Assembly: GCA_964384825.1 (NCBI GenBank)
Contig: CAYLMM010000031.1
Location: 1-32,831, forward strand
Length of the DNA stretch: 32,831 nt
Origin: an uncultured Fibrobacteraceae bacterium
GTDB taxonomy: Bacteria; Krumholzibacteriota; Krumholzibacteriia; LZORAL124-64-63
Direction: 5' to 3'
The notes under the pieces were generated by a model. That model made no database searches and was not told where the DNA came from. It saw only the letters and a program-made list of their open reading frames with translations. The number at the start of each line of letters is the position of its first letter. Position 1 is the first letter of the stretch. Made by a program: the position numbers and the translations under genes. Shown here piece after piece: positions 11,688 through 23,065 of this stretch.

Positions 11688-12947
11688 TCAGGCTTCCTTC
11701 TCGGCCCAGACCGCGATGGTTTGCAGGACGGTGTCGGTGGCCAGCACCATGTCCTTGACGCAGACCCACTCGCCGAGGCTGTGGAAGCTCTGCTCGCCGG
11801 TGAAGATGTTCGGCGTGGGCAGGCCGCGGGCCGAGAGGTTCGACCCGTCGGTGCCGCCGCGGATCGATCCGAGATGGGGATCCATGCCGGCGCGGCGGAT
11901 GGCCTCGGTGGCGTAGGCGATCGCCCGGGGCTCCTTCTCCAGGTCGTACTTCATGTTCCGGTAGTATTCCTTGATCTCGACCTCGACCTTCGATCCGGGC
12001 CAGGCGGCGCTGGCGGCCTCGGCCATCTCGCGGATCCGGTCGGCCTTGGGGCCCAGCTCGGCGGCGTCGAAATCGCGGATCAGCAGCGTGACCACGACCT
12101 GGCTGGTGTTGCCCTCGATGCCGATCGGATGGATGTAGCCCTCCATCCCTTCGGTGGTCTCCGGCGCGCCTTCCCGCGGCAGCGAGGCCACGAATTCCGC
12201 GGCGACCTTCACCGCGGGGACCATCTTGTCCTTGGCGTATCCGGGATGGATGTCGCGGCCGGTGAAGGTCACGACGGCGCTGTCGGCGCAGAAGGTCTCG
12301 TTCTCGATCTCGCCGCGCTTGCCGCCGTCCATCGTGTAGGCCACCGTCGCGCCGAACTTCTCGATGTCGAAGTACTTCACGCCCGCGCCGACTTCCTCGT
12401 CGGGGGTGAACGCGACCTTCACGGTGCCGTGCTTGAAATCGGGGTTCTCGCCGATCAGGGTCAGGGCCTCCATGATCTCGGCGATGCCGGCCTTGTCGTC
12501 GGCCCCCAGCAGGGTGGTGCCGTCGCTGGTGATGATCGTCTCGCCGACGCACTCGTTCAGGTACGGGTTGTCCTGCACGGTGATCGTGGGACCGTTGGGC
12601 AGGGGGATGTCGCCGCCCTGGTAGTTCTCGTGGAAGGTCGGCTTGACGTTCTCGCCGGAGACCTCGGGGTAGGTGTCCATGTGCGAGATGAACCCGACGG
12701 CCGGGACCTTGGCCAGGGCCGGGTCGTTGGCGGGCAGGGTGGCGGTCACGTAGCCGTACTTGTCCATCGCCGCGTCGGCGAGGCCGAGCTCCTTCAGCTC
12801 CTCGACCAGGACCCGGGCCAGATCGAGCTGGCAGGCGGACGAGGGGTAGGAATCGGATCCCTCGACGGCCTGCGTGTTGATGCGGGCGTATTTCACGAAG
12901 CGCTCGACAAGGGTCGGGAACTTGGTGTCCGGCTTGCGTTCGAGCAT
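11688..12947 (-). CDS. pepT: Peptidase T (tripeptide aminopeptidase, M20B family).
   Basis: The gene starts at the ATG at 12947 (MLERKPDTKFPTLVERFVKYARINTQ) with an AAAGGAGA ribosome-binding site. It contains M20 metal-binding motifs: GFISHMDT, GADDKAGIAEIMEAL and the terminal GTDGSNLS block. It is 419 aa, the typical PepT length. The track's 481-aa version has a spurious N-terminal extension. Confidence 0.9.
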   Translation of the reverse strand: MLERKPDTKFPTLVERFVKYARINTQAVEGSDSYPSSACQLDLARVLVEELKELGLADAAMDKYGYVTATLPANDPALAKVPAVGFISHMDTYPEVSGENVKPTFHENYQGGDIPLPNGPTITVQDNPYLNECVGETIITSDGTTLLGADDKAGIAEIMEALTLIGENPDFKHGTVKVAFTPDEEVGAGVKYFDIEKFGATVAYTMDGGKRGEIENETFCADSAVVTFTGRDIHPGYAKDKMVPAVKVAAEFVASLPREGAPETTEGMEGYIHPIGIEGNTSQVVVTLLIRDFDAAELGPKADRIREMAEAASAAWPGSKVEVEIKEYYRNMKYDLEKEPRAIAYATEAIRRAGMDPHLGSIRGGTDGSNLSARGLPTPNIFTGEQSFHSLGEWVCVKDMVLATDTVLQTIAVWAEKEA

Positions 12948-13208
12948 GGAAATCTCCTTTTTCTTCACGCAGGTCGATGGCGGGGGCCTGCATTCAAATA
13001 GAACCGGCGTCGCGCGGGACGAGGCCGGGATGGGACCGGTCGGGCCGACTGGCCGCCGACAAATGTATCCTTTCGGAGCGGAGGTAGCAAGAAGCCTCCC
13101 CGGCAACTTTTCTTGTCTGGGTCGGTCGGCCATGCTAATTTTCGGTGATCGGGCCGCGGCGACGCGGCCTTTTCCTGCCTACACCCGCGCGCATTTATGG
13201 AGGTATCC

Positions 13209-15230
13209 ATGGACGTCAGTGGCAACGCCAACCGACTGCCGGAGAATGCGTACCGCAAGCTGAATCCCGGTGAGGAATTCGTGCCCATCGTTCCGGCCGC
13301 CAAGATCGTGCCGGAGCTGACGCCGTACGCCCTCTTCTGGGGTCTGTTCTACGCGGTGCTCTTTTCCGCGGCCTGCGCCTACCTGGGCCTGAAGATCGGA
13401 CAGGTCTTCGAGGCGGCCATCCCGATCACGATCCTGGCCATCGGTCTGAGCAGCTCCCTGAAGAAGAAGGACGCGCTGCAGCAGAACGTGATGATCCAGT
13501 CGATCGGCTCGGCCTCGGGCGTGGTCGTGGCCGGCGCGATCTTCACGCTGCCGGGCATCTACATCCTCGGTTTGGCCGATCAGACCAACTTCATGCAGAT
13601 GGCCCTGGCGTCGCTGCTCGGCGGCATCATCGGCATCCTGTTCCTGATTCCGTTCCGGCGCTACTTCGTCAAGGATATGCACGGGGAGTTCCCCTTCCCC
13701 GAGGCCACGGCCTCGACCGAGGTCCTGATGGCCGGCGAGTCGGGCGGAGGCCAGGCGAGCATCCTGCTGAAGTCGGGCTTCATCGCCGCGGGCTACCAGC
13801 TGCTCTCGCAGACCTTCGGCCTGTGGCGCGAGACCTTCGTCACCACCGCCTTCAAGTGGGGCGAGACGGTGTCGCAGAAGGTGCGGCTGGAATTCCACAT
13901 GATGACCGAGGCGGCCATCATCGGCCTGGGCTACATCATCGGTCTGCGCTACGCGCTGGTCATCGCCTGCGGCTCGTTCCTGAGCTGGTTCGTGATGGTG
14001 CCGATGGTCGGCATCCTGGGCAAGGGCGTGAACATCGGCGACCAGGTCTACAGGATCGAGGCCCTCGACGCCCTGAGCACTCCGGACATCTTCGCCAACT
14101 TCGTCCGTCCGGTCGGCATCGGCGCGATCGCCATGGCCGGCCTGATCGGCGTCTGGAAGAGCCGCAGCATCATCGTCGGGGCCTTCAAGCTGGCCGCCGG
14201 CGGCGCCAAGACCGAGGGCGCCGGCGACGGCGCCGCGCAGAAGGTCGAGCGCACCCAGCGCGACCTGTCGATGAACCTCGTCACCTCGCTGATCATCATC
14301 AGCCTCGCGGCGATCTTCGCCTTCTTCCTGTTCCTGGTGCCCGGCGTGAACTTCGGCCAGTCGGTGACCGGCCTGCTGATCGTCGCCGGCATCGCCTTCC
14401 TGTTCGCGACCGTCGCGGCCCGGGCCATCGCAATCGTCGGCACCAACCCGGTTTCGGGCATGACCCTGATGACCCTGATCATCAGTTCGGTCATCCTGAA
14501 GGCCGTCGGCGTCGAGGGCGAGAGCGGCATCGTGGCCGCCCTGCTGATCGGCGGCGTGGTCTGCACCGCGCTGAGCATGAGCGGCGGCTTCGTCAGCGAC
14601 CAGAAGATCGGCTACTGGCTGGGCACCACGCCGGCCACCCAGCAGAAGTGGAAGTTCCTGGGCACCTTCGTCTCGGCGATCTCGGTGACCCTGGTGATCA
14701 TGCTGCTGGACAAGACCTACGGCTTCGCCGAGGGCGGGCTGCCCGCCCCCCAGGCCAACGCCATGGCCGCGGTGATCGAGCCCCTGATGACCGGACAGCC
14801 CGCTCCGTGGCTGCTCTACATGGCCGGCATCTTCATGGCCCTGATCCTCGAGTGGACCGGTCTGCCGGCCCTGGCCTTCGCGCTGGGCATGTACCTGCCG
14901 ATGTCGGTCAACACCCCGGTGCTGGCCGGCGGCCTGATCGCCTACTTCGTGACCAAGGGCGGATCGAAGGAGGAGCAGGGCAAGCGGCGCGAGAAGGGCA
15001 CCCTGATGGCCAGCGGCTTCGTGGCCGGCGGCGCCATCATGGGCGTCATCTCCGCCATCGTGCGGTTCGCGGGCATCAGCGCCACCGGCGAGTCGAACTG
15101 GAGCGTCGAGCACGCTCTGGGCATGACCCACTGGATCGAGGCCAATCCCCTGTCCGCCATCGTGACCCTGGTCTGCTTCATCGCGCTGGGTTACTACCTC
15201 TACAAGGGCGCACGCAACGCGGCGGCCTGA
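13209..15230 (+). CDS. OPT-family oligopeptide transporter.
   Basis: The product has about 16 predicted transmembrane segments and OPT-superfamily length and composition. The ATG at 13209 has a GGAGGT ribosome-binding site 6 nt upstream. An alternative ATG lies 4 codons earlier, at 13197. The gene is divergent from pepT, which suggests a peptide-uptake module. Confidence 0.85.
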   Translation: MDVSGNANRLPENAYRKLNPGEEFVPIVPAAKIVPELTPYALFWGLFYAVLFSAACAYLGLKIGQVFEAAIPITILAIGLSSSLKKKDALQQNVMIQSIGSASGVVVAGAIFTLPGIYILGLADQTNFMQMALASLLGGIIGILFLIPFRRYFVKDMHGEFPFPEATASTEVLMAGESGGGQASILLKSGFIAAGYQLLSQTFGLWRETFVTTAFKWGETVSQKVRLEFHMMTEAAIIGLGYIIGLRYALVIACGSFLSWFVMVPMVGILGKGVNIGDQVYRIEALDALSTPDIFANFVRPVGIGAIAMAGLIGVWKSRSIIVGAFKLAAGGAKTEGAGDGAAQKVERTQRDLSMNLVTSLIIISLAAIFAFFLFLVPGVNFGQSVTGLLIVAGIAFLFATVAARAIAIVGTNPVSGMTLMTLIISSVILKAVGVEGESGIVAALLIGGVVCTALSMSGGFVSDQKIGYWLGTTPATQQKWKFLGTFVSAISVTLVIMLLDKTYGFAEGGLPAPQANAMAAVIEPLMTGQPAPWLLYMAGIFMALILEWTGLPALAFALGMYLPMSVNTPVLAGGLIAYFVTKGGSKEEQGKRREKGTLMASGFVAGGAIMGVISAIVRFAGISATGESNWSVEHALGMTHWIEANPLSAIVTLVCFIALGYYLYKGARNAAA

Positions 15231-15244
15231 TGATTTGGGGGCCC

Positions 15245-15400
15245 CGGAGGGGGCCGGACGAGTGATGGTCGTCTTGTGAGGCCGGCGGGCCCGCACTTCC
15301 TGTGCGGGCCCGCCTTGGCGTTCGGGCGGCTTCGGCATCCTGCCTTCGCTCGCCCTCTCGACACCTCACAAGACGACCATCACCCGTCCGGCCCCCAGGC
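15245..15400. repeat. A 33-bp near-perfect terminal inverted repeat flanking an 82-bp core that has its own 13-bp perfect hairpin. It may be a MITE-like element, a REP-like element or a structured RNA.
   Basis: The left arm (15249-15281) reads gggggccggacgagtgatggtcgtcttgtgagg. The right arm (15364-15396) reads cctcacaagacgaccatcacccgtccggccccc. There are 32 matches out of 33. The inner hairpin is GGCGGGCCCGCAC-ttcct-GTGCGGGCCCGCC (15284-15314). Confidence 0.5.
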
Positions 15401-15441
15401 CCCCCCTCCGACCGGGGACCGCCTCACCCTTCCCATCCGCC

Positions 15442-17109
15442 TCACTCGGAATCCCGGAGGACGCCCCACAAACCCCAAGCCCCGTCGCTCCGCCCGTAAT
15501 GCCCGTCGCTAGGCGGCATGGCCCGCCCGTCGGTGGCCGTCGCGATCCAGCGCACGATCAGGTAGTCGCGGCCTTCGAGCAGATCCGCGGGCACGGTGAC
15601 CGCCGGGGTCGCGGAGCGGTCGACCAGCAACCGCAGGGGGCGATGATCGGCGTCGAGGGCTTCGATCCGCCAGGTCAGGCCGCGGATCAGGCCGCTCTCG
15701 GCCGGGAGGTCGCGGGCCTTGATCAGCAGTCCCGCGGGAACAGCGCGCGCGTCGGAGAGCCCCTCGACGGGCGAGACCCTGGTCAGGGCCCAGCGCAGGG
15801 TCTTGTCGCGGCGGCGTTTCAGGACGTCGACCAGCAGCGGGGCCGCGGCGGGGTCGTGGTAGCGCCCGCTGGCGACGGCGGCTTCGATCATCTGGTCGGT
15901 CATCCGCGCCAGAACCGTCCCGGCCCAGTAGATGTCGGCGGCGCGGGCGTCGCAGAGGGCGTCGTTGACGTAGTTGGCGCGCCAGGCGGCGGGATCGTAG
16001 ATGTCGGCTTCGAACATCCCGATCTCGCGGTTGGCCGGCCCTTCGAGACGTTCGTAGGGCCGCACCCACAGCCCGAGGGTGGGCATCGAGGTCAGGATCT
16101 CGCGGAAGTCGATGTCGTAGGCGAAGCCGATCCTTTTTTCGTGACGGGCGGCCCAGTAGCCGCCGAGGCAGCCGTCGAAATCCACCAGGTAGTGGCGCAG
16201 GAAGCGGCGGCCGTCCTGCTCGATGTAGAGGTCGAGGGTGTTGTCGAATTTCTGGTCGACGTGGTTCAGCCAGGCGCCGAAGACCCGCAATCCGCGCAGC
16301 GACCGGCGGCGCTGGTGGGGGATGCGGTCGTTCGGATCGTCGTCGCGCACGCCGGCGTAGTCGTAGCCTCCGCGCGGCGATCCTTCGAGAAAGCGGCTGA
16401 CCAGGGCGCGGTACCCGCCCTCCTCGGTGCGGCAGGGCAGCAGGGTCATCAGCCGGTCGATGTCGTTGCGGTCCAGGGGGCGCTTGCGATCCTTCTCCTT
16501 CACGGTCGCGCCCGCGGCGATCTCCAACTCGCCGGGCCGGAAATAGACGATGCGGTCGTCGGGCACGAAGTAGCCCAGGGCCCACAGCAGGCGGGCGGCC
16601 ACCGCGCCGGCGGCGGTCGCGGTCACCGGTTCGCCGCGCTTGTCGAACTTGCAGATGTACCGCGCGCCGCGGGAATCCTCGAAATTGAAGCCCGGATTGC
16701 GGCCGCCGATCTTCAGGCCGGTCACCTTCCAGGGCTTGAAGGCCTCGGGCCCGGGATCGTCGCCGCCGGGCCCGGCCGCGACGTCCCGGGGCGAGAGCGC
16801 GCCGATGCGGTTGGTGTACCACGACGAATCCGGCACCCGGCCCAGGCGGTTGACGTCCTCGGCGGGCATCGCCCGGGTCGGCGAGAGGCCGGTGCGGGCC
16901 TGCCGCAGCACGAAGTTCTCGATGTGATGGCTCAGCCGGCGGAACTCGTTCTCGGACGGTTCCGGGATGTCGGCGTCGTCGGCGATGCGCGTGATCACCG
17001 TTCCGGGAACGAAGCGCGGCGGCGCCGAAGAGCATCCCGGCAGGGATGCCGCCGCGAGGGCGGCCAGGGCCGCGCCGAGCAGCACCAGGATGTCGCGGCG
17101 GGCGTTCAT
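15442..17109 (-). CDS. Lipoprotein with a protein-kinase-like catalytic signature (an atypical secreted kinase fold).
   Basis: The gene starts at the ATG at 17109 (MNARRDILVLLGAALAALAAASLPGCSS, a signal peptide plus lipobox). An AGGAGG ribosome-binding site lies 6 nt upstream. FGAWLNHVDQKFDNTLD contains an exact HxDxKxxN catalytic loop. It is followed 20 aa later by YLVDFDGCLGG, a DFG-like motif. Earlier, YICKFDKRGEPV is a possible VAIK-like Lys. The first 437 aa of track ORF 15442..18420 is Arg-rich junk, a shadow of the Omp85 gene. Confidence 0.75.
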   Translation of the reverse strand: MNARRDILVLLGAALAALAAASLPGCSSAPPRFVPGTVITRIADDADIPEPSENEFRRLSHHIENFVLRQARTGLSPTRAMPAEDVNRLGRVPDSSWYTNRIGALSPRDVAAGPGGDDPGPEAFKPWKVTGLKIGGRNPGFNFEDSRGARYICKFDKRGEPVTATAAGAVAARLLWALGYFVPDDRIVYFRPGELEIAAGATVKEKDRKRPLDRNDIDRLMTLLPCRTEEGGYRALVSRFLEGSPRGGYDYAGVRDDDPNDRIPHQRRRSLRGLRVFGAWLNHVDQKFDNTLDLYIEQDGRRFLRHYLVDFDGCLGGYWAARHEKRIGFAYDIDFREILTSMPTLGLWVRPYERLEGPANREIGMFEADIYDPAAWRANYVNDALCDARAADIYWAGTVLARMTDQMIEAAVASGRYHDPAAAPLLVDVLKRRRDKTLRWALTRVSPVEGLSDARAVPAGLLIKARDLPAESGLIRGLTWRIEALDADHRPLRLLVDRSATPAVTVPADLLEGRDYLIVRWIATATDGRAMPPSDGHYGRSDGAWGLWGVLRDSE

Positions 17110-18485
17110 CGCAACCTCCTGGATCTGAGGTCGAAGATCGAGCCGGTGCCGATGTAGAACTGGGCGCCCTCGTCGCTCCAGGCGCCCTGGACCGACACCG
17201 AGGTCGGCCCGAGGCGCACGACCATCGCCAGTCCCATCGAGCGCTTCATCTCGTCGAGGTGCAGCGCGTCCCATTCGGGAACGGCGGCGCCCCATTCGGT
17301 GAAGATCCGACCCTGGATGTAGTTGCACAGGGGGTAGCGGTACTCGAGGGTCGCGAGCAGGATGTCCGCGCCGGTGAAGCGGTCGCGGTCGAAGCCGCGG
17401 CCGAGCCGGCGCCCGCCGAGGCGGCAGAATTCGGTGAACGGGATCTCGGTCGGGTCGTTGCGGCTCATGCCCTCGGCGTAGACGCGCAGCGCCAGGCTGC
17501 GGTTCTCGCGGTAGATGTCGGCGAAGAGTTGGGCCTCGGCGCTGTAATGGCGGTAGGCGTAGTTCCCGACCGAGCGGGCGTCGTTGGTGCCTCCGATCAG
17601 ACGCAGCAGGCCGCCCCGGGTGGAGAATTCGCCGTCGTTGCGGCGGTCGAACTCGATCCCCGCCTCGAGCCCCACGTAGTCGCTCTGTTCGGCTTTGGCG
17701 TAGAGATCGGGGAAGCCCTCGGAGATCCGGGGGCCGTGGCCGGGATCCTTCAGGGTGATCTCGCGCGCCCAGGCCGAACCGAACACCCGCACGCGCGGAT
17801 GGATCCGCCACCCGAGCGTGGTTTCGAGCAGCGAACGGCGTCTGCCGGTGTCGTGGCGCACGTCCGGCGCGTCCATCCCCAGGCCGTAGAACGGGACGTC
17901 GTCCTTGCGCTCGGAGCGGGCCACGACGTCGAAGTCGAACGGGCCCGAGGCGGTCTCCATCTCGAAGATCAGCAGGTTGTCCTCGGAGGTCAGGTAGCTG
18001 CCGCCGGCGGTGAAGTCGATGCCGGTGCCGAGCCAGTCCCGGGATTTCGCGCGCAGGCCGGCCACCGACCAGCCGAAGCCCGTCTCCCAGCCGAAGCTGG
18101 CCGCGATCTTCGTGTCCAGCGACGAGATGTTCCAGACCATCAGCTTCTTCAGCTTCCCGACCAGGTCGTAGGTGTCCTGGAGGCCGACCAGGTAGACGAT
18201 CGGCCGAAAAACGGTCTCGATTGCGATGTAGGGGACGAAGCCCAGTCCCGAGACGATGTCGCGCTGCCTGCCGCCGGCCCGGCCGAGGGGTTCGGCGGTG
18301 CCGCGCAACAGCTCGGGTCGGCCCGGCACCGGAGTCCGCACCGCGGCGGAATCCGGCCCCGCGCCGGCGGCTTCGATGGCGGATCCGGCGGCGGCCGAGT
18401 CGGCGGCGGCCGCCGCGCAAAGGGCGTCCGCCGGGGAAAGAGCGGCCGCGAACAGGACGGCCAGGACCAGCGCCGCGCGCGTCAT
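17106..18485 (-). CDS. Omp85-family (bacterial surface antigen D15 / TpsB / TamA-like) outer-membrane beta-barrel protein.
   Basis: The gene starts at the ATG at 18485 (MTRAALVLAVLFAAALSPADA, a signal peptide) with a GGGAGGA ribosome-binding site. The C-terminal barrel signature reads LGGRRLGRGFDRDRFTGADILLATLEYRYPL...GRIFTEWGAAV...MGLAMVVRLGPTSVSVQGAW, of the LGG..LRGF...G...E.R.P type. The stop overlaps the downstream ATG as ATGA. Confidence 0.7.
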   Translation of the reverse strand: MTRAALVLAVLFAAALSPADALCAAAAADSAAAGSAIEAAGAGPDSAAVRTPVPGRPELLRGTAEPLGRAGGRQRDIVSGLGFVPYIAIETVFRPIVYLVGLQDTYDLVGKLKKLMVWNISSLDTKIAASFGWETGFGWSVAGLRAKSRDWLGTGIDFTAGGSYLTSEDNLLIFEMETASGPFDFDVVARSERKDDVPFYGLGMDAPDVRHDTGRRRSLLETTLGWRIHPRVRVFGSAWAREITLKDPGHGPRISEGFPDLYAKAEQSDYVGLEAGIEFDRRNDGEFSTRGGLLRLIGGTNDARSVGNYAYRHYSAEAQLFADIYRENRSLALRVYAEGMSRNDPTEIPFTEFCRLGGRRLGRGFDRDRFTGADILLATLEYRYPLCNYIQGRIFTEWGAAVPEWDALHLDEMKRSMGLAMVVRLGPTSVSVQGAWSDEGAQFYIGTGSIFDLRSRRLR

Positions 18486-19840
18486 GCGGGATCCTCCCGC
18501 GTCAGGCGGCGGTGGCGGCGGGCGATGTCCACGACCAGCGCCAGCCACACGACGACCAGCGCCACGTTGGCCAGCGCGAACTGCCGGGTGGCGAAGCCGA
18601 AGCTCGTTCCCAGCAGCACCACGCCGGCCGATGCCACGTCGCCGGTGCGGACGAAGAAGGTGTCGATCGCCTGCTTGGCCTTGTACTTCGCCGCCCGGCT
18701 GGTGGGCAGGAACAAGGTCTGCCGCACCGTGTTCTGCAGCGAGTAGTCGGTGGAGTTCTCCATGATCTTGGCGATGCGGATGACGCCCAGCACGGCGCTG
18801 AAGGCCATCAGGGCGTAGCCGCCGATGGCGATCAGCGGCAGCACGAACAGGGCCTTGCGCACGCCGGCGTACTTCAGGATCCGCGAGACGGCGAACAGCT
18901 GCAGCGCCGCGCTCAGCAGGTTGACCCAGGTGAAGAACCCGGAGTAGAAGCCGCCGATCATCTGCTCCGCGTCGCCGCCGGAGGCCAGCGCCACCTCGGT
19001 GATCTTCGCCCCGAGGATGTACTCGCCGTTGGTGTTGACCACGTTGGTCACCAGCAGCATCAGGGCGATCGACAGCAGGTAGCGGTCGCGCAGGACCATC
19101 GTGAAACCCGAGGCGTCGTCGTCCGCGGCGGGGGAGCCGTCGGCGCCGGTCCCGGCCGTCTCGGCCCTCGGCGGCGCGGCTTCCCGCCGTTCCAGGGCCG
19201 CGCGCTCCCGCCGGCTCACGACGTTGATCAGCAGCATGCAGACGCCCAGCAGGCCGGCGGCGATCAGCATCATCTCGTAGGCGCCGATCCCGACCGCGAA
19301 CAGGCGGCCGGCGACCACCGCGCCGAGGATCGCGCCGAGCGAGCTGCCGAAGGCCACCAAAGGGAACAGGCGCTTGCCCTGCTCCTGGGTGTAGATGTCG
19401 TTGGCGAAGGACCAGGCCTGGGCGATGATCATCAGGCTGAAGATCCCGACCCAGAGGAAGAAGGCCACGCCCAGATAGGGAACGCCGGCCCGGGCCAGGA
19501 GGTAGAAGAGCGCCAGGTTGCCCATGAAGAACAGCGTGACCCGGTTGATCAGCCGGACGCGGTCGATGCGGTTGACCAGGGCGCTGTAGAGCGGAACGAT
19601 CCCGATCAGCAGCAGGGCCTGGCCGGCCGCGGCGTAGCTCTTCAGCTCGGCGCCGCCCCCCATCAGGATCAACGGTTCGCGGACGGTCTTGAGGATGTAG
19701 TAGGCGGTCAGCAGCAGGAACAGGTTCAGCATCAGCAGCAGGGCCGTGCCGGCTTCACCCGGGCGGACGGGCGTGAAAACCGAAAGCAGGCGGGATGCCC
19801 AGGGGGCACCGTTCGGCGTCGGGGCGTTCGATCGCTCCAT
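18482..19840 (-). CDS. Inner-membrane transporter resembling the TLC/NTT ATP:ADP antiporter (AAA) family. It could alternatively be an MFS-like transporter.
   Basis: The 452-aa product has about 11-12 transmembrane segments. Its first helix, ALLLMLNLFLLLTAYYILKTVREPLIL, matches the TLC-family hallmark (LL..F..Y.ILR/K....L). A GGAGGA ribosome-binding site lies 6 nt upstream of the ATG at 19840. The stop overlaps the next ATG as ATGA. Confidence 0.6.
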   Translation of the reverse strand: MERSNAPTPNGAPWASRLLSVFTPVRPGEAGTALLLMLNLFLLLTAYYILKTVREPLILMGGGAELKSYAAAGQALLLIGIVPLYSALVNRIDRVRLINRVTLFFMGNLALFYLLARAGVPYLGVAFFLWVGIFSLMIIAQAWSFANDIYTQEQGKRLFPLVAFGSSLGAILGAVVAGRLFAVGIGAYEMMLIAAGLLGVCMLLINVVSRRERAALERREAAPPRAETAGTGADGSPAADDDASGFTMVLRDRYLLSIALMLLVTNVVNTNGEYILGAKITEVALASGGDAEQMIGGFYSGFFTWVNLLSAALQLFAVSRILKYAGVRKALFVLPLIAIGGYALMAFSAVLGVIRIAKIMENSTDYSLQNTVRQTLFLPTSRAAKYKAKQAIDTFFVRTGDVASAGVVLLGTSFGFATRQFALANVALVVVWLALVVDIARRHRRLTREDPA

Positions 19841-20028
19841 GAAAGTCCTCCGTACGGGTTCCCAGCCCGTTTCAACCTAGCCATTCCGGCCCGGATTGCC
19901 TACAACTTTCCGCTGGCCGTTGGCGCGGGCGGGATCGGTGTGCTACCGTCGGGCCGACATCGTTGACGGCGCCGGCCGGCGGGAATTCCGAGCCGGGAAG
20001 CGCAACATCTTCCGCACCGAGGATCGTG

Positions 20029-21129
20029 ATGAAACAGGTATGGATCACCAGGGCGGGCGAGCCCGAGACGATGGCCGTGCGCGAGGCTCCCGATCCCGTC
20101 CCCGGCCGGGGCGAGGTCCGGATCCGCGTGCATGCCGCGGGCGTGAACTTCGCCGACGTCATGATGCGCTTGGGGATCTATCCCGACGCCCCCGCCCTGC
20201 CCGCGGTCCCCGGCTACGAGGCCGCTGGCGTGATCGACGCGGTCGGCGAGGGCGTCGACGACGGCCTGGTCGGAACCGGCGCGGTCGCCTTCCGGGCCTT
20301 CGGCTGCTACGCGGACGTGATCTGCGTGGACCGTCGCTTCGCCTTCCCGCTGCCCGAAGGAATGCCGGCCGCGGTCGGCGCCGGGCTGATCGTCAACTAC
20401 GTCACCGCCTGGCAGATGGTCGAGGCGATGGCTCCGGTGCGCGAGGGCATGACCGTGCTGATCCACGGCGCCGCCGGCGGGGTGGGCCTGGCCGCGGTCC
20501 AGCTCTGCCGCCGCCGCGGGGCCCGGATCCTGGGCTCGGCCTCGCCCGCCAAGCACGCCTTCCTGCGCGAGGCCGGGGTCGAGGCCGTCTTCGATTCCCG
20601 CCGCCGGCACTATGCGTCGTCGGTGCTCGCGGCCACCGGCGGGCTCGGCTGCGACGTGGTGCTCGAACCCCGCAACGGCCGCTGGATCGGCGAGAGCTAC
20701 GACTGCCTGGGCGCCACCGGGCGCCTGATCCTTTTCGGCTTCTCGGACGCCGCCGTCGGCAAGCGCGGCTCGAAGCTGGCCGCCCTGCGCACCCTGGCCT
20801 CGGTGCCGTGGCTGCGCCTGAACCCGATGCGGCTGATCAACGACAACCGTGGCGTGATGGGGGTCAACGTGGGCCGGCTCTGGGACCGGCGCGAGATGGT
20901 CGCCGGCTGGATCGCCGAGATCCTCGCCGGAGTCGAGCAGGGCTGGATCGCGCCGCGCATCGATCGCGGCTTCAGGCTCGAGGACGCCGCGAAGGCCCAT
21001 CACTTCCTGCAGGACAGGCGCAACGTCGGCAAGGTCGTGCTGCTGACCGGGGCGGGGCTCGCCGCCGGACCGGGTTGCCGGATGGACGGGGACGGAAACG
21101 GGAACGGAAACGGGGGGGAAGAGGCGTGA
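20029..21129 (+). CDS. NADPH:quinone oxidoreductase / zinc-type alcohol dehydrogenase-like (MDR superfamily).
   Basis: Motifs include GEVRIRVHAAGVNFADV, PAVPGYEAAGVIDAVG and the Rossmann motif VLIHGAAGGVGLAAVQL. The ATG at 20029 has a GAGGA ribosome-binding site 5 nt upstream. The C-terminal tail is low-complexity (GDGNGNGNGGEEA). Confidence 0.85.
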   Translation: MKQVWITRAGEPETMAVREAPDPVPGRGEVRIRVHAAGVNFADVMMRLGIYPDAPALPAVPGYEAAGVIDAVGEGVDDGLVGTGAVAFRAFGCYADVICVDRRFAFPLPEGMPAAVGAGLIVNYVTAWQMVEAMAPVREGMTVLIHGAAGGVGLAAVQLCRRRGARILGSASPAKHAFLREAGVEAVFDSRRRHYASSVLAATGGLGCDVVLEPRNGRWIGESYDCLGATGRLILFGFSDAAVGKRGSKLAALRTLASVPWLRLNPMRLINDNRGVMGVNVGRLWDRREMVAGWIAEILAGVEQGWIAPRIDRGFRLEDAAKAHHFLQDRRNVGKVVLLTGAGLAAGPGCRMDGDGNGNGNGGEEA

Positions 21130-21866
21130 AGATCTCGGCCGTGCTGATAACCCGCGACGCCGCAGCTCATCTGGAAGGCTGCCTGGCCTCGCTCGATTTC
21201 GCCGACGAGATCGTGGTCCTGGACCAGAACAGCTCCGACGGCACCGTCGCGATCGCCGAGAGGATGGGAGCGAAGGTCCACCAGGGAGTCTGGCGCGGCT
21301 TCGGGCCCACCAAGCGCGCGGCGGTCGATCTGGCCCGCAACCGCTGGATCCTGAGCATCGACGCCGACGAGGAGGTCACGCCCGAGCTGAGGGAGGCGAT
21401 CCTGGCCCTGCCCGCAGCCCCGCCCGAAGCCGCGTTCGCGATCAACCGCCTCTCGCGTTTTTTGGGCCGATGGATGCGGCATTGCGGCTGGCATCCCGAC
21501 TGGGTGGTCCGCCTCTTCGACCGCGAACGGGCCGGATTCGACGAGAAGATGGTCCACGAATCCGTGCGGACCGAGGGGTCGGTCGGCAGGCTCGACGGCC
21601 TGCTGCGGCATTACACCTACGACAACCTCGAACAGTACCTGGACAAGGTGAACCGATACACGACCCTGTCGGCCGAGGCCGCCTACGACGCCGGCCGTCG
21701 CGTCACCCCGATCGGCGCTCTTGTGCGGGGCAAGCTGACCTTCGTGCGCTTCTTCGTGCTGCGCCGCGGTTTCCTCGACGGTTGGCACGGGCTGCTGCTG
21801 AGCCTCTGCTCGGCCTGGGGCGTCTTCGTGAAATACGTGAAGATCTGGTGGAAGGGGCGCTCGTGA
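21126..21866 (+). CDS. Family-2 glycosyltransferase (KdtX/WaaE-like, LPS core or cell-envelope glycosylation). GTG start.
   Basis: The N-terminus VKISAVLITRDAAAHLEGCLASL is a typical GT2 start. A DxD region is present (ILSIDADEEV). The GTG overlaps the upstream stop as GTGA, and a GGAAGAGG ribosome-binding site is present. The track shows this gene fused to a 400-aa Arg-rich shadow ORF. Confidence 0.8.
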   Translation: MKISAVLITRDAAAHLEGCLASLDFADEIVVLDQNSSDGTVAIAERMGAKVHQGVWRGFGPTKRAAVDLARNRWILSIDADEEVTPELREAILALPAAPPEAAFAINRLSRFLGRWMRHCGWHPDWVVRLFDRERAGFDEKMVHESVRTEGSVGRLDGLLRHYTYDNLEQYLDKVNRYTTLSAEAAYDAGRRVTPIGALVRGKLTFVRFFVLRRGFLDGWHGLLLSLCSAWGVFVKYVKIWWKGRS

Positions 21867-21925
21867 ATCGACCGGCGAGCGCCGGCGCGATGCGCGGAAG
21901 ATCGCAATTATCCGGAGGATGGAGA

Positions 21926-23065
21926 ATGCGCGCGAGAATCCTGTTTCTGATCTGCTGCTGCCTGGCCGTCGCGGCCGTCGTTCCCGCCGCCGCGCGTCCG
22001 CCGCAGGTTCCCGCCGAGGCGGCCGCGGTCCAGGAACAGCTGCTGGGCGACGTGCGCGCCCGCATCGCCGACGCCCGCCGGCTGAACGGGCATAAATACG
22101 CTCCGGCGGCCTATAGCGAGGCCCGGACGGCTCTGGCCGCGGCCGAAGAGGCCGTCGCCGCCGATTTCGCGGCCGCCCGCGACGGAGCCTGCGCCGCCGA
22201 GATCCGCGCCGCCCGGATCGCCGCCTCCGCCTTCTACGCCAAGGCCGCATTCATCGAGGAACTGCGCGACTACCGCTACGGTTGGGAAGAGGCCGTGGAC
22301 CGCTACGAATCCCTGGTGAACGACGTGGCCGTGGTTTCCGGCATCCGGCTCGATCCCTTCCTGGGCGGATCGGCCGCCGCCGGCGCCGTCGTGGATTCGC
22401 TGACCGCCCGGCGGGGCCGCACCCGCGCCCTGCTCGATTCCCTCTCGCGGGAGAACGAGATGCTGCGCCTGCGGACGACGACCGAAGGGGCGGTCCAGGA
22501 CACGGTGATCGCGGGCCTGCGGGCCGAGTTGGGGGAACTGCGCAGCCGCCTCTGGGAGATGGAGCTGCGCGCCGGCGTGGCCGAGGCCGATCGATCGGCC
22601 GCCGAGGAGGTCCTGCGGCGCAACCGGCTGCGCGAGGAGCAGGTCGCCGGGCTGGTGGGATTGTTCACGCCCGACGAGGGGGAGATCCTGCTGACGCCCG
22701 AGGGGGACGTGCGCATCAGGCTGACGGGTCTGGGTTTCGCGGTGGGCAGCGCCTGGCTGGGATCGAAACAGCAGCCCCTGCTGGCCAAGCTGCACGAGGC
22801 GGTCAAGCGCTTCCCGGGCGCTCCGCTGCGGGTCGAGGGCCACACCGACGACACCGGGCCGCGCGACGTGAACCTCGATCTGTCGCTGCGCCGGGCCGCG
22901 GCGGTGGCCAAGGATCTGGCCGGGAAACTGGGCGTCGATCCGGCCGGCATCGCGACCCGGGGGCTGGGACCGGATCGTCCGACGGCCACCAACGCCACGG
23001 CCGAGGGCCGGGCCCTGAACCGGCGGATCGAGGTCGTGATCCTGGCGGCGGACAAGGTCGAATAG
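21926..23065 (+). CDS. OmpA-family protein with an N-terminal signal peptide, a long coiled-coil region and a C-terminal OmpA/MotB peptidoglycan-binding domain.
   Basis: The gene starts at the ATG at 21926 (MRARILFLICCCLAVAAVVPAAA) with a GGAGGA ribosome-binding site 6 nt upstream. The C-terminus reads LRVEGHTDDTGPRDVNLDLSLRRAAAVAKDL...NRRIEVVI. Confidence 0.85.
   Translation: MRARILFLICCCLAVAAVVPAAARPPQVPAEAAAVQEQLLGDVRARIADARRLNGHKYAPAAYSEARTALAAAEEAVAADFAAARDGACAAEIRAARIAASAFYAKAAFIEELRDYRYGWEEAVDRYESLVNDVAVVSGIRLDPFLGGSAAAGAVVDSLTARRGRTRALLDSLSRENEMLRLRTTTEGAVQDTVIAGLRAELGELRSRLWEMELRAGVAEADRSAAEEVLRRNRLREEQVAGLVGLFTPDEGEILLTPEGDVRIRLTGLGFAVGSAWLGSKQQPLLAKLHEAVKRFPGAPLRVEGHTDDTGPRDVNLDLSLRRAAAVAKDLAGKLGVDPAGIATRGLGPDRPTATNATAEGRALNRRIEVVILAADKVE

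Follow-up and report, generated by a model that had tools for sequence, protein, structure and literature searches.

Three co-directional minus-strand genes (A, B and C) fill positions 15442-19840 of a 32,831-nucleotide stretch of DNA from an uncultured bacterium of the Krumholzibacteriota (contig CAYLMM010000031.1; the whole stretch that was analysed is called the window below). They encode an inner-membrane transporter of the TLC/NTT superfamily, an Omp85-family outer-membrane β-barrel, and an exported, probably active kinase-fold lipoprotein of a new sequence family. The pairing of B with C is near obligate across phyla, and an A-like gene accompanies the pair in ∼40% of loci. We tentatively propose, with a confidence somewhat short of even, that C works outside the cytoplasm as a phosphotransferase, which the Omp85 barrel either retains or exports, and that its ATP comes from the NTT exchanger.

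An initial annotation, made from the sequence alone, had described a three-gene cassette with ATGA overlaps at both junctions, and this observation is confirmed: the reading frames and both overlaps were read directly in the sequence. The cassette is laid out as follows:

18482-19840, minus strand: gene A, 452 amino acids (aa), ending E-D-P-A-TGA with the stop codon at 18484-18482
18482-18485, minus strand: ATGA overlap of the A stop and the B start (B ATG at 18485-18483), read directly
18492-18498, minus strand: Shine-Dalgarno-like GGGAGGA 5' of B, read directly
17106-18485, minus strand: gene B, 459 aa, ending R-R-L-R-TGA with the stop codon at 17108-17106
17106-17109, minus strand: ATGA overlap of the B stop and the C start (C ATG at 17109-17107), read directly
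17115-17120, minus strand: Shine-Dalgarno-like AGGAGG 5' of C, read directly
15442-17109, minus strand: gene C, 555 aa, exported lipoprotein with a predicted atypical protein-kinase-like fold and a C-terminal β-sandwich

A mechanically generated list of open reading frames (ORFs) gives longer versions of two of these genes (B, 480 aa from a GTG; C, 992 aa from a TTG); the ATG starts were chosen because of the Shine-Dalgarno motifs, the signal peptides beginning there, and the lengths of homologues. Operons often contain 4-nt ATGA overlaps, which are frequent between co-directional genes in GC-rich genomes; one such overlap taken alone is weak proof. The A/B overlap is present likewise in L001 (L-numbers label compared loci from other genomes), and an ATGA or GTGA overlap of the B stop and C start recurs in at least 23 other loci from several phyla.

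The C product matched nothing in Pfam, NCBIfam or PADLOC, and PDB sequences searched with the single sequence and with a C profile gave no match. None of the Pfam and NCBIfam profiles of named kinase families (Pkinase, HipA, CotH, Fam20, PI3_PI4_kinase, APH, Kdo) matched C, and a sub-threshold HipA_2 match (E 0.028) was found in one of 42 relatives. The model predicted from a 42-sequence alignment (predicted local distance difference test, pLDDT, 94.4; predicted template-modelling score, pTM, 0.92) has the bilobal fold of protein-kinase-like (PKL) proteins, its elements following the canonical kinase order of strand 1, Gly-rich loop, strand 2, strand 3, helix C, helix E, catalytic loop, two strands and DFD. 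Among the structural matches the secreted kinase CtkA ranks first (score 14.8), followed by Fam20 (13.9), PI4K2-alpha (12.9), CotH (12.0), HipA-like proteins (11.9), MavQ (11.3) and Actin-fragmin kinase (11.1). The initial annotation had called C a lipoprotein and had picked out an HxDxKxxN motif followed by DFD as a eukaryotic-type catalytic loop; LPGC, HVDQKFDN and DFD are indeed present, and the latter two, as HxDxKxxN and DF(D/G), are conserved family-wide and fall at the canonical catalytic-loop and DFG positions of this confident model. The features of C, with residue numbers, are:

17032-17109, minus strand: signal peptide with lipobox L-P-G-C (residues 23-26; MNARRDILVLLGAALAALAAAS-LPG-C26), read directly; lipidation is predicted
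16807-16836, minus strand: N-terminal family motif VPDSSWYTNR (residues 92-101), with S95, W97 and R101 96% conserved
15775-16797, minus strand: kinase-like core (∼residues 105-445)
16687-16713, minus strand: Gly-rich loop K133-IGGRNPG-F141, between strands 127-133 and 140-144 of the model
16642-16659, minus strand: strand-3 motif YICKFD (K154, D156), on strand 150-154 of the model
16294-16341, minus strand: family-specific motif DDPND..H...R..R (residues 257-272)
16240-16263, minus strand: catalytic-loop motif H283-V-D285-Q-K287-F-D-N290, after helix E (274-281) and before strands 291-298 and 301-308 of the model
16174-16182, minus strand: DFG-equivalent D310-F-D312, after two strands of the model
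15445-15762, minus strand: C-terminal Ig/FN3-like β-sandwich (∼residues 450-555)

Conservation was scored over 255 diverse relatives. In the Gly-rich loop K133 is kept in 92%, G136 in 95% and G140 in 94%; in the strand-3 motif K154 is kept in 90% and D156 in 97%. The catalytic loop retains D285 (96%), K or R at 287 (90%) and N290 (96%), and the DFG-equivalent retains D310 (99%) and F311 (89%), with position 312 occupied by G in 64% and D in 31%, that is, by a true DFG in most relatives. A signal-like h-region is found in 221 of 228 full-length relatives (∼97%), and a lipobox-like Cys in 136 of the 228. C is thus an exported and probably active protein, as judged from the signal peptides and the conserved active-site residues. 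D261, H265, R269 and R272, within DDPND..H...R..R, are invariant in all 255 relatives and so are stricter than the catalytic aspartate; this motif, which could not be matched to a motif of familiar kinase families, may be a substrate-binding or second metal-binding site.

A profile search recovered 4,809 C-family cluster representatives at 50% identity (1,654 at E up to 1e-30), and a scan of one genome per species found at least 581 C-encoding stretches. The carriers include Acidobacteriota, Myxococcota, Calditrichia, Ignavibacteria, Krumholzibacteria, Latescibacterota, Eisenbacteria, Zixibacteria, Gemmatimonadota and Bdellovibrionales, most of them being non-predatory soil Acidobacteriota. 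The window most resembles metagenome-assembled genomes labelled Krumholzibacteria. When hidden Markov models (HMMs) of the three genes were run against every ORF in 80 species-level loci, B lay directly upstream of C in 64 of the 72 loci with enough upstream sequence, the pair being seen in Acidobacteriota, Myxococcota, Calditrichia, Ignavibacteria, Krumholzibacteria, Latescibacterota, Zixibacteria and others. The expected recurrence of the trio in other genomes therefore holds for B and C, but A is present in only part of the loci: an A-like gene, in a short form or a long NTT-HEAT form, lies within the 8-kb flanks in 17 of 43 loci of at least 15 kb (∼40%), as against ∼1% expected by chance (our own estimate, assuming a few family copies in a ∼5-Mb genome). 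Among the 30 loci having A, the gene is on the same strand and abuts B-C (<300 nt) in 11, and is on the same strand within 2 kb in a further eight (19 of 30 in total), mostly with a Metallophos gene between. Six A homologues were also sampled: three occur in Omp85-C(-Metallophos)-A operons (L089, L090, L093) and two beside an 850-aa Omp85 fusion protein (L088, L091), and four have a Metallophos neighbour (L089, L090, L092, L093).

Several loci carry more than one copy of the module. In L003 (5750-12239; likewise L004) the gene for a secreted DSP phosphatase separates two convergent B-C pairs, and duplications within one locus are also seen in L026, L040 (B-B-C), L050, and L064 and L065 (tandem C-C). 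Such duplication suggests paralogous specialisation.

Gene B scores 35 bits against the Pfam Omp85 family PF01103 (cut-off 24) over residues 265-451, while its matches to the NCBIfam models Omp85_fam, BamA and TamA are all under the cut-off (BamA, 22.7 vs. 297; TamA, 9.8 vs. 625). The protein combines a signal peptide and an Ala-rich linker with a short conserved helical segment and a barrel predicted to have ∼16 strands. Its predicted model (pLDDT 57), which like the alignment rests on six homologues and was used solely for strand count and barrel class, has ∼16-17 strands over residues ∼117-446 (DSSP) and an N-terminal region of helix and coil at low confidence; the top Foldseek matches are BamA/TamA barrels (E 1e-10, probability 1.0). 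These results bear out the assignment to Omp85 made in the initial annotation, and of the signature cited there LGG and ATLEYRYPL are present, while the supposed LRGF is actually GRGF (all three within residues 356-386). The lid-lock motifs of Omp85 proteins comprise a loop-6 (V/L)RG(F/Y) and a strand-13 FxDxG (PMC11358297), and B carries motifs of both types:

17109-18137, minus strand: β-barrel region of B (∼residues 117-459), from DSSP of the model
17391-17402, minus strand: loop-6 type motif GRGF (residues 362-365; LRGY in homologues), from the alignment
17289-17303, minus strand: motif F-T-E-W-G (residues 395-399; FxDxG-type, strand 13), from the alignment

POTRA domains, for which Pfam families were searched at E up to 1, gave no match in B; nor was a ShlB/TpsB signature found in the window copy of B, or a TPS (haemagglutination-activity) domain by Pfam in C or 42 relatives. 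The absence of POTRA from B and of a TPS domain from C argues against classical two-partner secretion, and with a BamA/TamA-like barrel the role in that style first envisaged for B is weakened. By its sequence features B is an Omp85-family barrel that groups with the POTRA-less 'noNterm' Omp85s (Heinz & Lithgow 2014; Leptospira paralogues 2024), which have lid-lock motifs, are often encoded beside lipoprotein genes, and are of unknown function (PMC4104836, PMC11358297).

Gene A scores 58.6 bits against the Pfam TLC family PF03219 (the AAA family of TCDB; cut-off 21; E 6.6e-16) in three stretches, and its MFS_1 score is under the Pfam cut-off. Its phmmer matches among PDB sequences are solely the NTT ATP/ADP carriers 9j3n (E 4.7e-7) and 9j3j, with which it has the motifs FAN(D/E)I and K-x-K-x-K-x-A-I-D in common:

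19391-19414, minus strand: A motif WSFANDIY, phmmer-aligned with FWGFANEI of the solved NTTs 9j3n and 9j3j
18662-18688, minus strand: A motif KYKAKQAID, phmmer-aligned with KVKGKAAID of the solved NTTs

Gene A thus belongs with TLC/NTT rather than with ordinary MFS transporters, in agreement with the initial annotation; the first-helix TLC hallmark on which that assignment had leaned does match, but weakly (phmmer domain score 2.7), and the strongest Pfam stretch is C-terminal (residues 341-441). A crude hydropathy plot has at least nine strong hydrophobic segments, six of them in the N-terminal half ahead of the central loop, where an MFS-like topology would have ∼12 helices in all, and more than 7,900 close homologues from many phyla are auto-annotated as ATP:ADP antiporters. 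ATP transport by AtNTT1 needs four charged residues, K155, E245, E385 and K527 (PMC10654386); in the alignment of A with the solved NTTs, the basic residues in LKTVRE/LRDTKD and KYKAKQAID/KVKGKAAID are conserved in kind. Against the NCBIfam model TIGR00769 (NTP/NDP exchange transporter) A scores 60.2 bits, with a cut-off of 387.2, which places it outside the characterised NTT clade and makes ATP an assumed substrate. We conclude that A is an inner-membrane transporter of the MFS-like TLC/NTT superfamily. All characterised TLC/NTT carriers move nucleotides, many as ATP/ADP exchangers, and homologues are widespread in free-living bacteria, including NTT-HEAT fusions followed by cyclic-nucleotide (cNMP)-binding genes that were catalogued in 2017 with their function open (PMC5381601); an NTT-like gene is accordingly not the oddity in a free-living bacterium that it had been taken for.

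Clustering of all other ORFs in the 80 loci brought out recurrent accessory genes: Metallophos phosphoesterases (12 loci), PAP2 phosphatases (11 loci; directly after C in L018, L041, L053, L070 and L080, and after the second C copy in L026), DSP/PTP-like phosphatases (4 loci) and cNMP-binding proteins (12 loci; 10 of the 43 long loci). The Metallophos neighbours inspected have signal peptides, most with a lipobox-like Cys, the DSP protein likewise carries one, and the PAP2 neighbours, which are polytopic in the membrane, are of the lipid-phosphatase type; their signal peptides and membrane location indicate that phosphoesterases acting outside the cytoplasm are encoded together with the exported C. 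The window's own cassette has no Metallophos, PAP2 or DSP accessory gene.

NTT-HEAT genes followed by cNMP-binding genes, an arrangement described by Major et al. 2017 (PMC5381601), were seen within a few kb of B-C at L005:11171-14436, L090:409-3702 and L023:12165-13103. In other loci a long NTT-HEAT transporter is translationally coupled to a Hanks-type Ser/Thr kinase with ∼6 N-terminal transmembrane (TM) helices and a kinase domain at residues 231-502 (L091:11995-15922, L088:13060-17003, L097, L127), two copies of which flank B-C in L007. This coupling may be a regulatory link from cytoplasmic phosphorylation to the carrier; the 6-TM kinase is not part of the core module, since it is present in just two C-centred loci. 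A cluster of Ser/Thr kinases, histidine kinases and response regulators that spanned 36 loci was rejected as a single-linkage artefact of common domains.

The 850-aa proteins encoded beside A at L091:9340-11907 (plus strand) and L088:10278-12830 (minus strand), which are 43% identical to each other, belong to a second family, in which an unannotated N-terminal domain (∼570 aa in these two) is fused to an Omp85 barrel. Its members in these two loci and in L094-L173 are 850-1285 aa long, and at least 119 relatives were found in metagenomes. The invariant N-domain motifs (GG..P....G.QT, G....FR..DK, GDWDRH..QW, DRDQA, RRD.L) are co-linear with the Gly-rich loop, strand 3, catalytic loop, DFD and C-lobe helix of C, and the domain may be kinase-like; profile-profile comparison with the C family recovered just one helix motif (the last, equivalent to RRD.L; Prob 3-26%), and one member has a faint HipA_C match (E 0.078), for which reason homology to C is not claimed. 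The fused family and C never occur in the same locus and share their accessory neighbours (among 29 fused-family loci, Metallophos in nine, PAP2 in five and A in four), a parallel that supports a physical unit of enzyme domain and Omp85 barrel. In L168 (4849-8511, plus strand) and L166 (2285-5947, plus strand) a single 1221-aa ORF joins Metallophos (residues 31-224), the DWDRH N-domain and the Omp85 barrel, so that in some lineages the phosphoesterase is physically coupled to the module.

Our proposal starts from observations made in the window and its relatives, namely the identities of the three products, the export signal and conserved active-site residues of C, and the linkage of C to B and to A. 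B would either keep C at the outer membrane's periplasmic side, in the way that the PlpD barrel keeps its patatin domain, or let it pass to the cell surface; there C would phosphorylate an envelope substrate, which may be a lipid, glycolipid, glycan or protein. The adjacency of PAP2 genes and the lipid kinases PI4K2-alpha and MavQ among the structural neighbours point to a lipid or glycolipid; the neighbours CtkA, Fam20C, CotH and HipA, together with the DSP and Metallophos genes, are equally compatible with a protein or glycan. A would run as in plastids and chlamydiae with the gradients reversed, moving cytoplasmic ATP out and ADP (with phosphate) in: high cytoplasmic ATP and the periplasmic ADP made by the kinase would drive the exchanger outward, and an ATP/ADP exchanger would suit the role because the periplasm has no ATP synthesis of its own. 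In other genomes the co-encoded exported Metallophos, PAP2 and DSP phosphoesterases would reverse the phosphorylation or further process its product, and NTT-HEAT carriers with cNMP-binding partners would regulate supply. That many diderms phosphorylate periplasmic or outer-membrane targets with ATP in this way, through an Omp85-tethered kinase-fold enzyme, NTT-mediated ATP export and ADP retrieval, and phosphoesterase reset, is a broader idea that we regard as possible and hold with considerable reserve.

Several points weigh against this proposal. No A-like gene lies within 8 kb in ∼60% of C loci, and A is distant from the characterised NTTs (32 bits to a solved NTT). ATP released to the periplasm could leak away through porins. 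At the position of the strand-3 lysine K154 of C, ∼10% of relatives have S, I or E, and a clear helix-C glutamate was not seen; K133 in the Gly-rich loop could stand in for K154, and D156 is a candidate partner. The low confidence of the B model leaves the N-terminal anatomy of B uncertain, and the fusion of Metallophos to a barrel fits sequential processing as well as reversal. Beyond fold and synteny, the proposal is what we infer from sequences and predicted models.

The arrangement of B and C, in which a barrel gene precedes its translationally coupled partner as in tpsB-tpsA, would also suit two-partner-type secretion of an ecto-kinase or effector: B would export C to the surface or into the medium, C would act on other cells or extracellular material with their ATP, like CtkA of H. 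pylori, and A would be a nucleotide importer or otherwise not the supplier of C. That the closest structure is the secreted CtkA, that the family occurs in the predatory lineages Myxococcota, Bdellovibrionales and Bradymonadales, and that C ends in an Ig/FN3-like domain of a type common in surface proteins all speak for such a role. We nevertheless judge it unlikely, as B has no detectable POTRA or ShlB/TpsB signature and C no TPS domain, the barrel is BamA/TamA-like with lid-lock motifs, the carriers are mostly non-predatory, and the co-encoded periplasm-facing PAP2 and lipoprotein phosphoesterases would be left unexplained. The same phosphoesterases might instead belong to a scavenging pathway for nucleotides or organophosphates, since the periplasmic nucleotidases UshA and CpdB and the acid phosphatase PhoN are members of the Metallophos and PAP2 superfamilies that recur in the loci. 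C would then bind or process extracellular or periplasmic nucleotides at the outer membrane, Metallophos and PAP2 proteins would serve as periplasmic nucleotidases or acid phosphatases, and A would import nucleotides into the cytoplasm, as befits characterised NTTs, which are nucleotide importers (PMC5381601). Nucleotide binding alone, however, needs no catalytic Asp, Asn and DFG Asp kept at 96-99%, the PAP2 neighbours are polytopic and of the lipid-phosphatase type, and hydrolysis to nucleosides would remove the substrates of NTTs. Moreover, Omp85 barrels are not known to act as solute channels, and scavenging seems to us distinctly improbable.

BamA-type barrels work with lipoprotein partners, and kinase folds have repeatedly been reused as pseudokinases or for other chemistry. 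C could accordingly be a non-catalytic accessory lipoprotein, or an enzyme of other nucleotide chemistry (AMPylation as in SelO, glutamylation as in SidJ), that serves a specialised BamA/TamA-like insertase or lipid-handling barrel and is linked to A indirectly; indeed the most invariant residues of the family (D261, H265, R269, R272, D392, W395, R433) lie outside the classical kinase motifs. Retention of the complete D-x-K-x-x-N and DFG set is, however, atypical of pseudokinases, and for a structural accessory one would not expect NTT-like genes and phosphoesterases to be linked so tightly, on the same strand, across many phyla, so that we give this explanation little credence. Finally, the three genes might be chance neighbours in an ordinary operon of unrelated envelope genes, given that ATGA overlaps are common in GC-rich genomes and that the remaining neighbours in the window are housekeeping genes. 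The position of B directly upstream of C across phyla refutes this for B-C, and the excess of A over the chance estimate leaves it very improbable for the cassette as a whole. A role in anti-phage defence was rejected (no PADLOC match).

The proposed phosphotransferase module was compared with known systems. C has no detectable sequence similarity to Fam20C and Fam20B, the eukaryotic secretory-pathway kinases with a lumenal ATP supply; it is bacterial, bears a lipobox and is paired with an Omp85 protein, and its candidate carrier is of the NTT/TLC and not the SLC35 type. CtkA and the HipA-family kinases have no sequence link to the C family other than the sub-threshold HipA_2 match. The HipA catalytic loop is D-x-H-x-K-N, whereas that of C is D-x-K-x-x-N, and C adds a Sec/lipoprotein signal, an Omp85 partner and the C-terminal β-sandwich. 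The lipopolysaccharide kinases WaaP and KdkA, which have the PKL fold, phosphorylate envelope glycolipids in the cytoplasm before export; C, in contrast, is exported, and it has no Kdo/WaaP match in Pfam.

PlpD, a type Vd Omp85 protein whose barrel is coupled to an enzyme domain that stays in the periplasm (PMC11116518), resembles the module and may show how B holds C, and the fused N-domain-Omp85 relatives are laid out in the same way. In PlpD, however, patatin lipase, POTRA domain and barrel form one polypeptide, whereas the module has its enzyme as a kinase-fold lipoprotein of its own and shows no detectable POTRA. With this precedent, export of C to the surface is no likelier than anchoring in the periplasm. 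Two-partner secretion (TpsB/TpsA, type Vb) likewise pairs an Omp85-superfamily barrel with an exported partner whose gene is adjacent and co-expressed, but B lacks the POTRA domains and ShlB-type signature of TpsB, and C lacks the TPS domain. B shares its barrel, lid-lock motifs and lack of POTRA with the 'noNterm' Omp85s, and differs from them in a conserved ∼90-residue N-terminal segment and in a dedicated kinase-fold partner, no such partner having been found in the papers on them (PMC4104836, PMC11358297). Like the NTT/TLC carriers Rickettsia Tlc1, Chlamydia Npt1 and plastid NTT1, A is over the Pfam TLC threshold and has the motifs of the solved NTTs; compared with these classical carriers it is ∼50 residues shorter, comes from a free-living lineage and reaches 60 against 387 bits. 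The NTT-HEAT/cNBD proteins of free-living bacteria (PMC5381601) have their counterpart in the NTT-HEAT and cNMP-binding genes of related loci.

The combination had been thought not to be a described system, and a full-text literature search, which was not exhaustive, turned up neither a published Omp85/kinase-fold/NTT system nor a periplasmic kinase described as having its own ATP supply. The module lies outside two-partner secretion, BAM/TAM and all named kinase families; its parts come from known superfamilies, and it is new at the system level, with a function that we infer. The periplasm is generally treated as ATP-free, and the known periplasmic envelope modifications use lipid-linked or other ATP-independent donors. 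If our proposal is true, that view would be challenged by a conserved exported enzyme that retains a complete kinase active site and is genetically linked to a nucleotide exchanger, and bacteria would have an equivalent of the secretory-pathway kinases of eukaryotes. The NTT and NTT-HEAT homologues of free-living bacteria, whose function has been a question since 2017 (PMC5381601), would likewise gain a concrete role. C further represents a large new kinase-fold family (∼4,800 clusters at 50% identity) that has no Pfam or NCBIfam model, and it supplies a defined partner for part of the poorly understood POTRA-less Omp85 proteins. Even if the idea of ATP export proves wrong, B and C together would remain a new and widespread outer-membrane module that deserves characterisation.

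The window has a G+C content of 64-73% and many shadow ORFs in other frames. Those of 552-992 aa that overlap or extend the trio are artefacts of high G+C (∼70%) and not genes, and were disregarded:

15442-18420, minus strand: shadow ORF
15499-17157, plus strand: shadow ORF
17046-18746, plus strand: shadow ORF
18221-19966, plus strand: shadow ORF

A scan of positions 15100-20200 for promoters and terminators found no promoter-like site and a single terminator-like site, inside gene A, which is no more than shuffled sequence yields; an Rfam scan of the whole window gave no match. The other neighbours of the cassette in the window are an OPT transporter, an M20 peptidase, a zinc dehydrogenase, a GT2 and an OmpA-like protein. 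Over 11688-15230 and 19963-23065 the gene order matches that of L001, a related 1-Mb contig, with the M20 peptidase and OPT oligopeptide transporter on one side and the GT2 glycosyltransferase and OmpA-family protein on the other. The flanks differ in that L001 has an extra Acyl_transf_3 gene directly after C, while the window has the zinc-dehydrogenase gene upstream of A.

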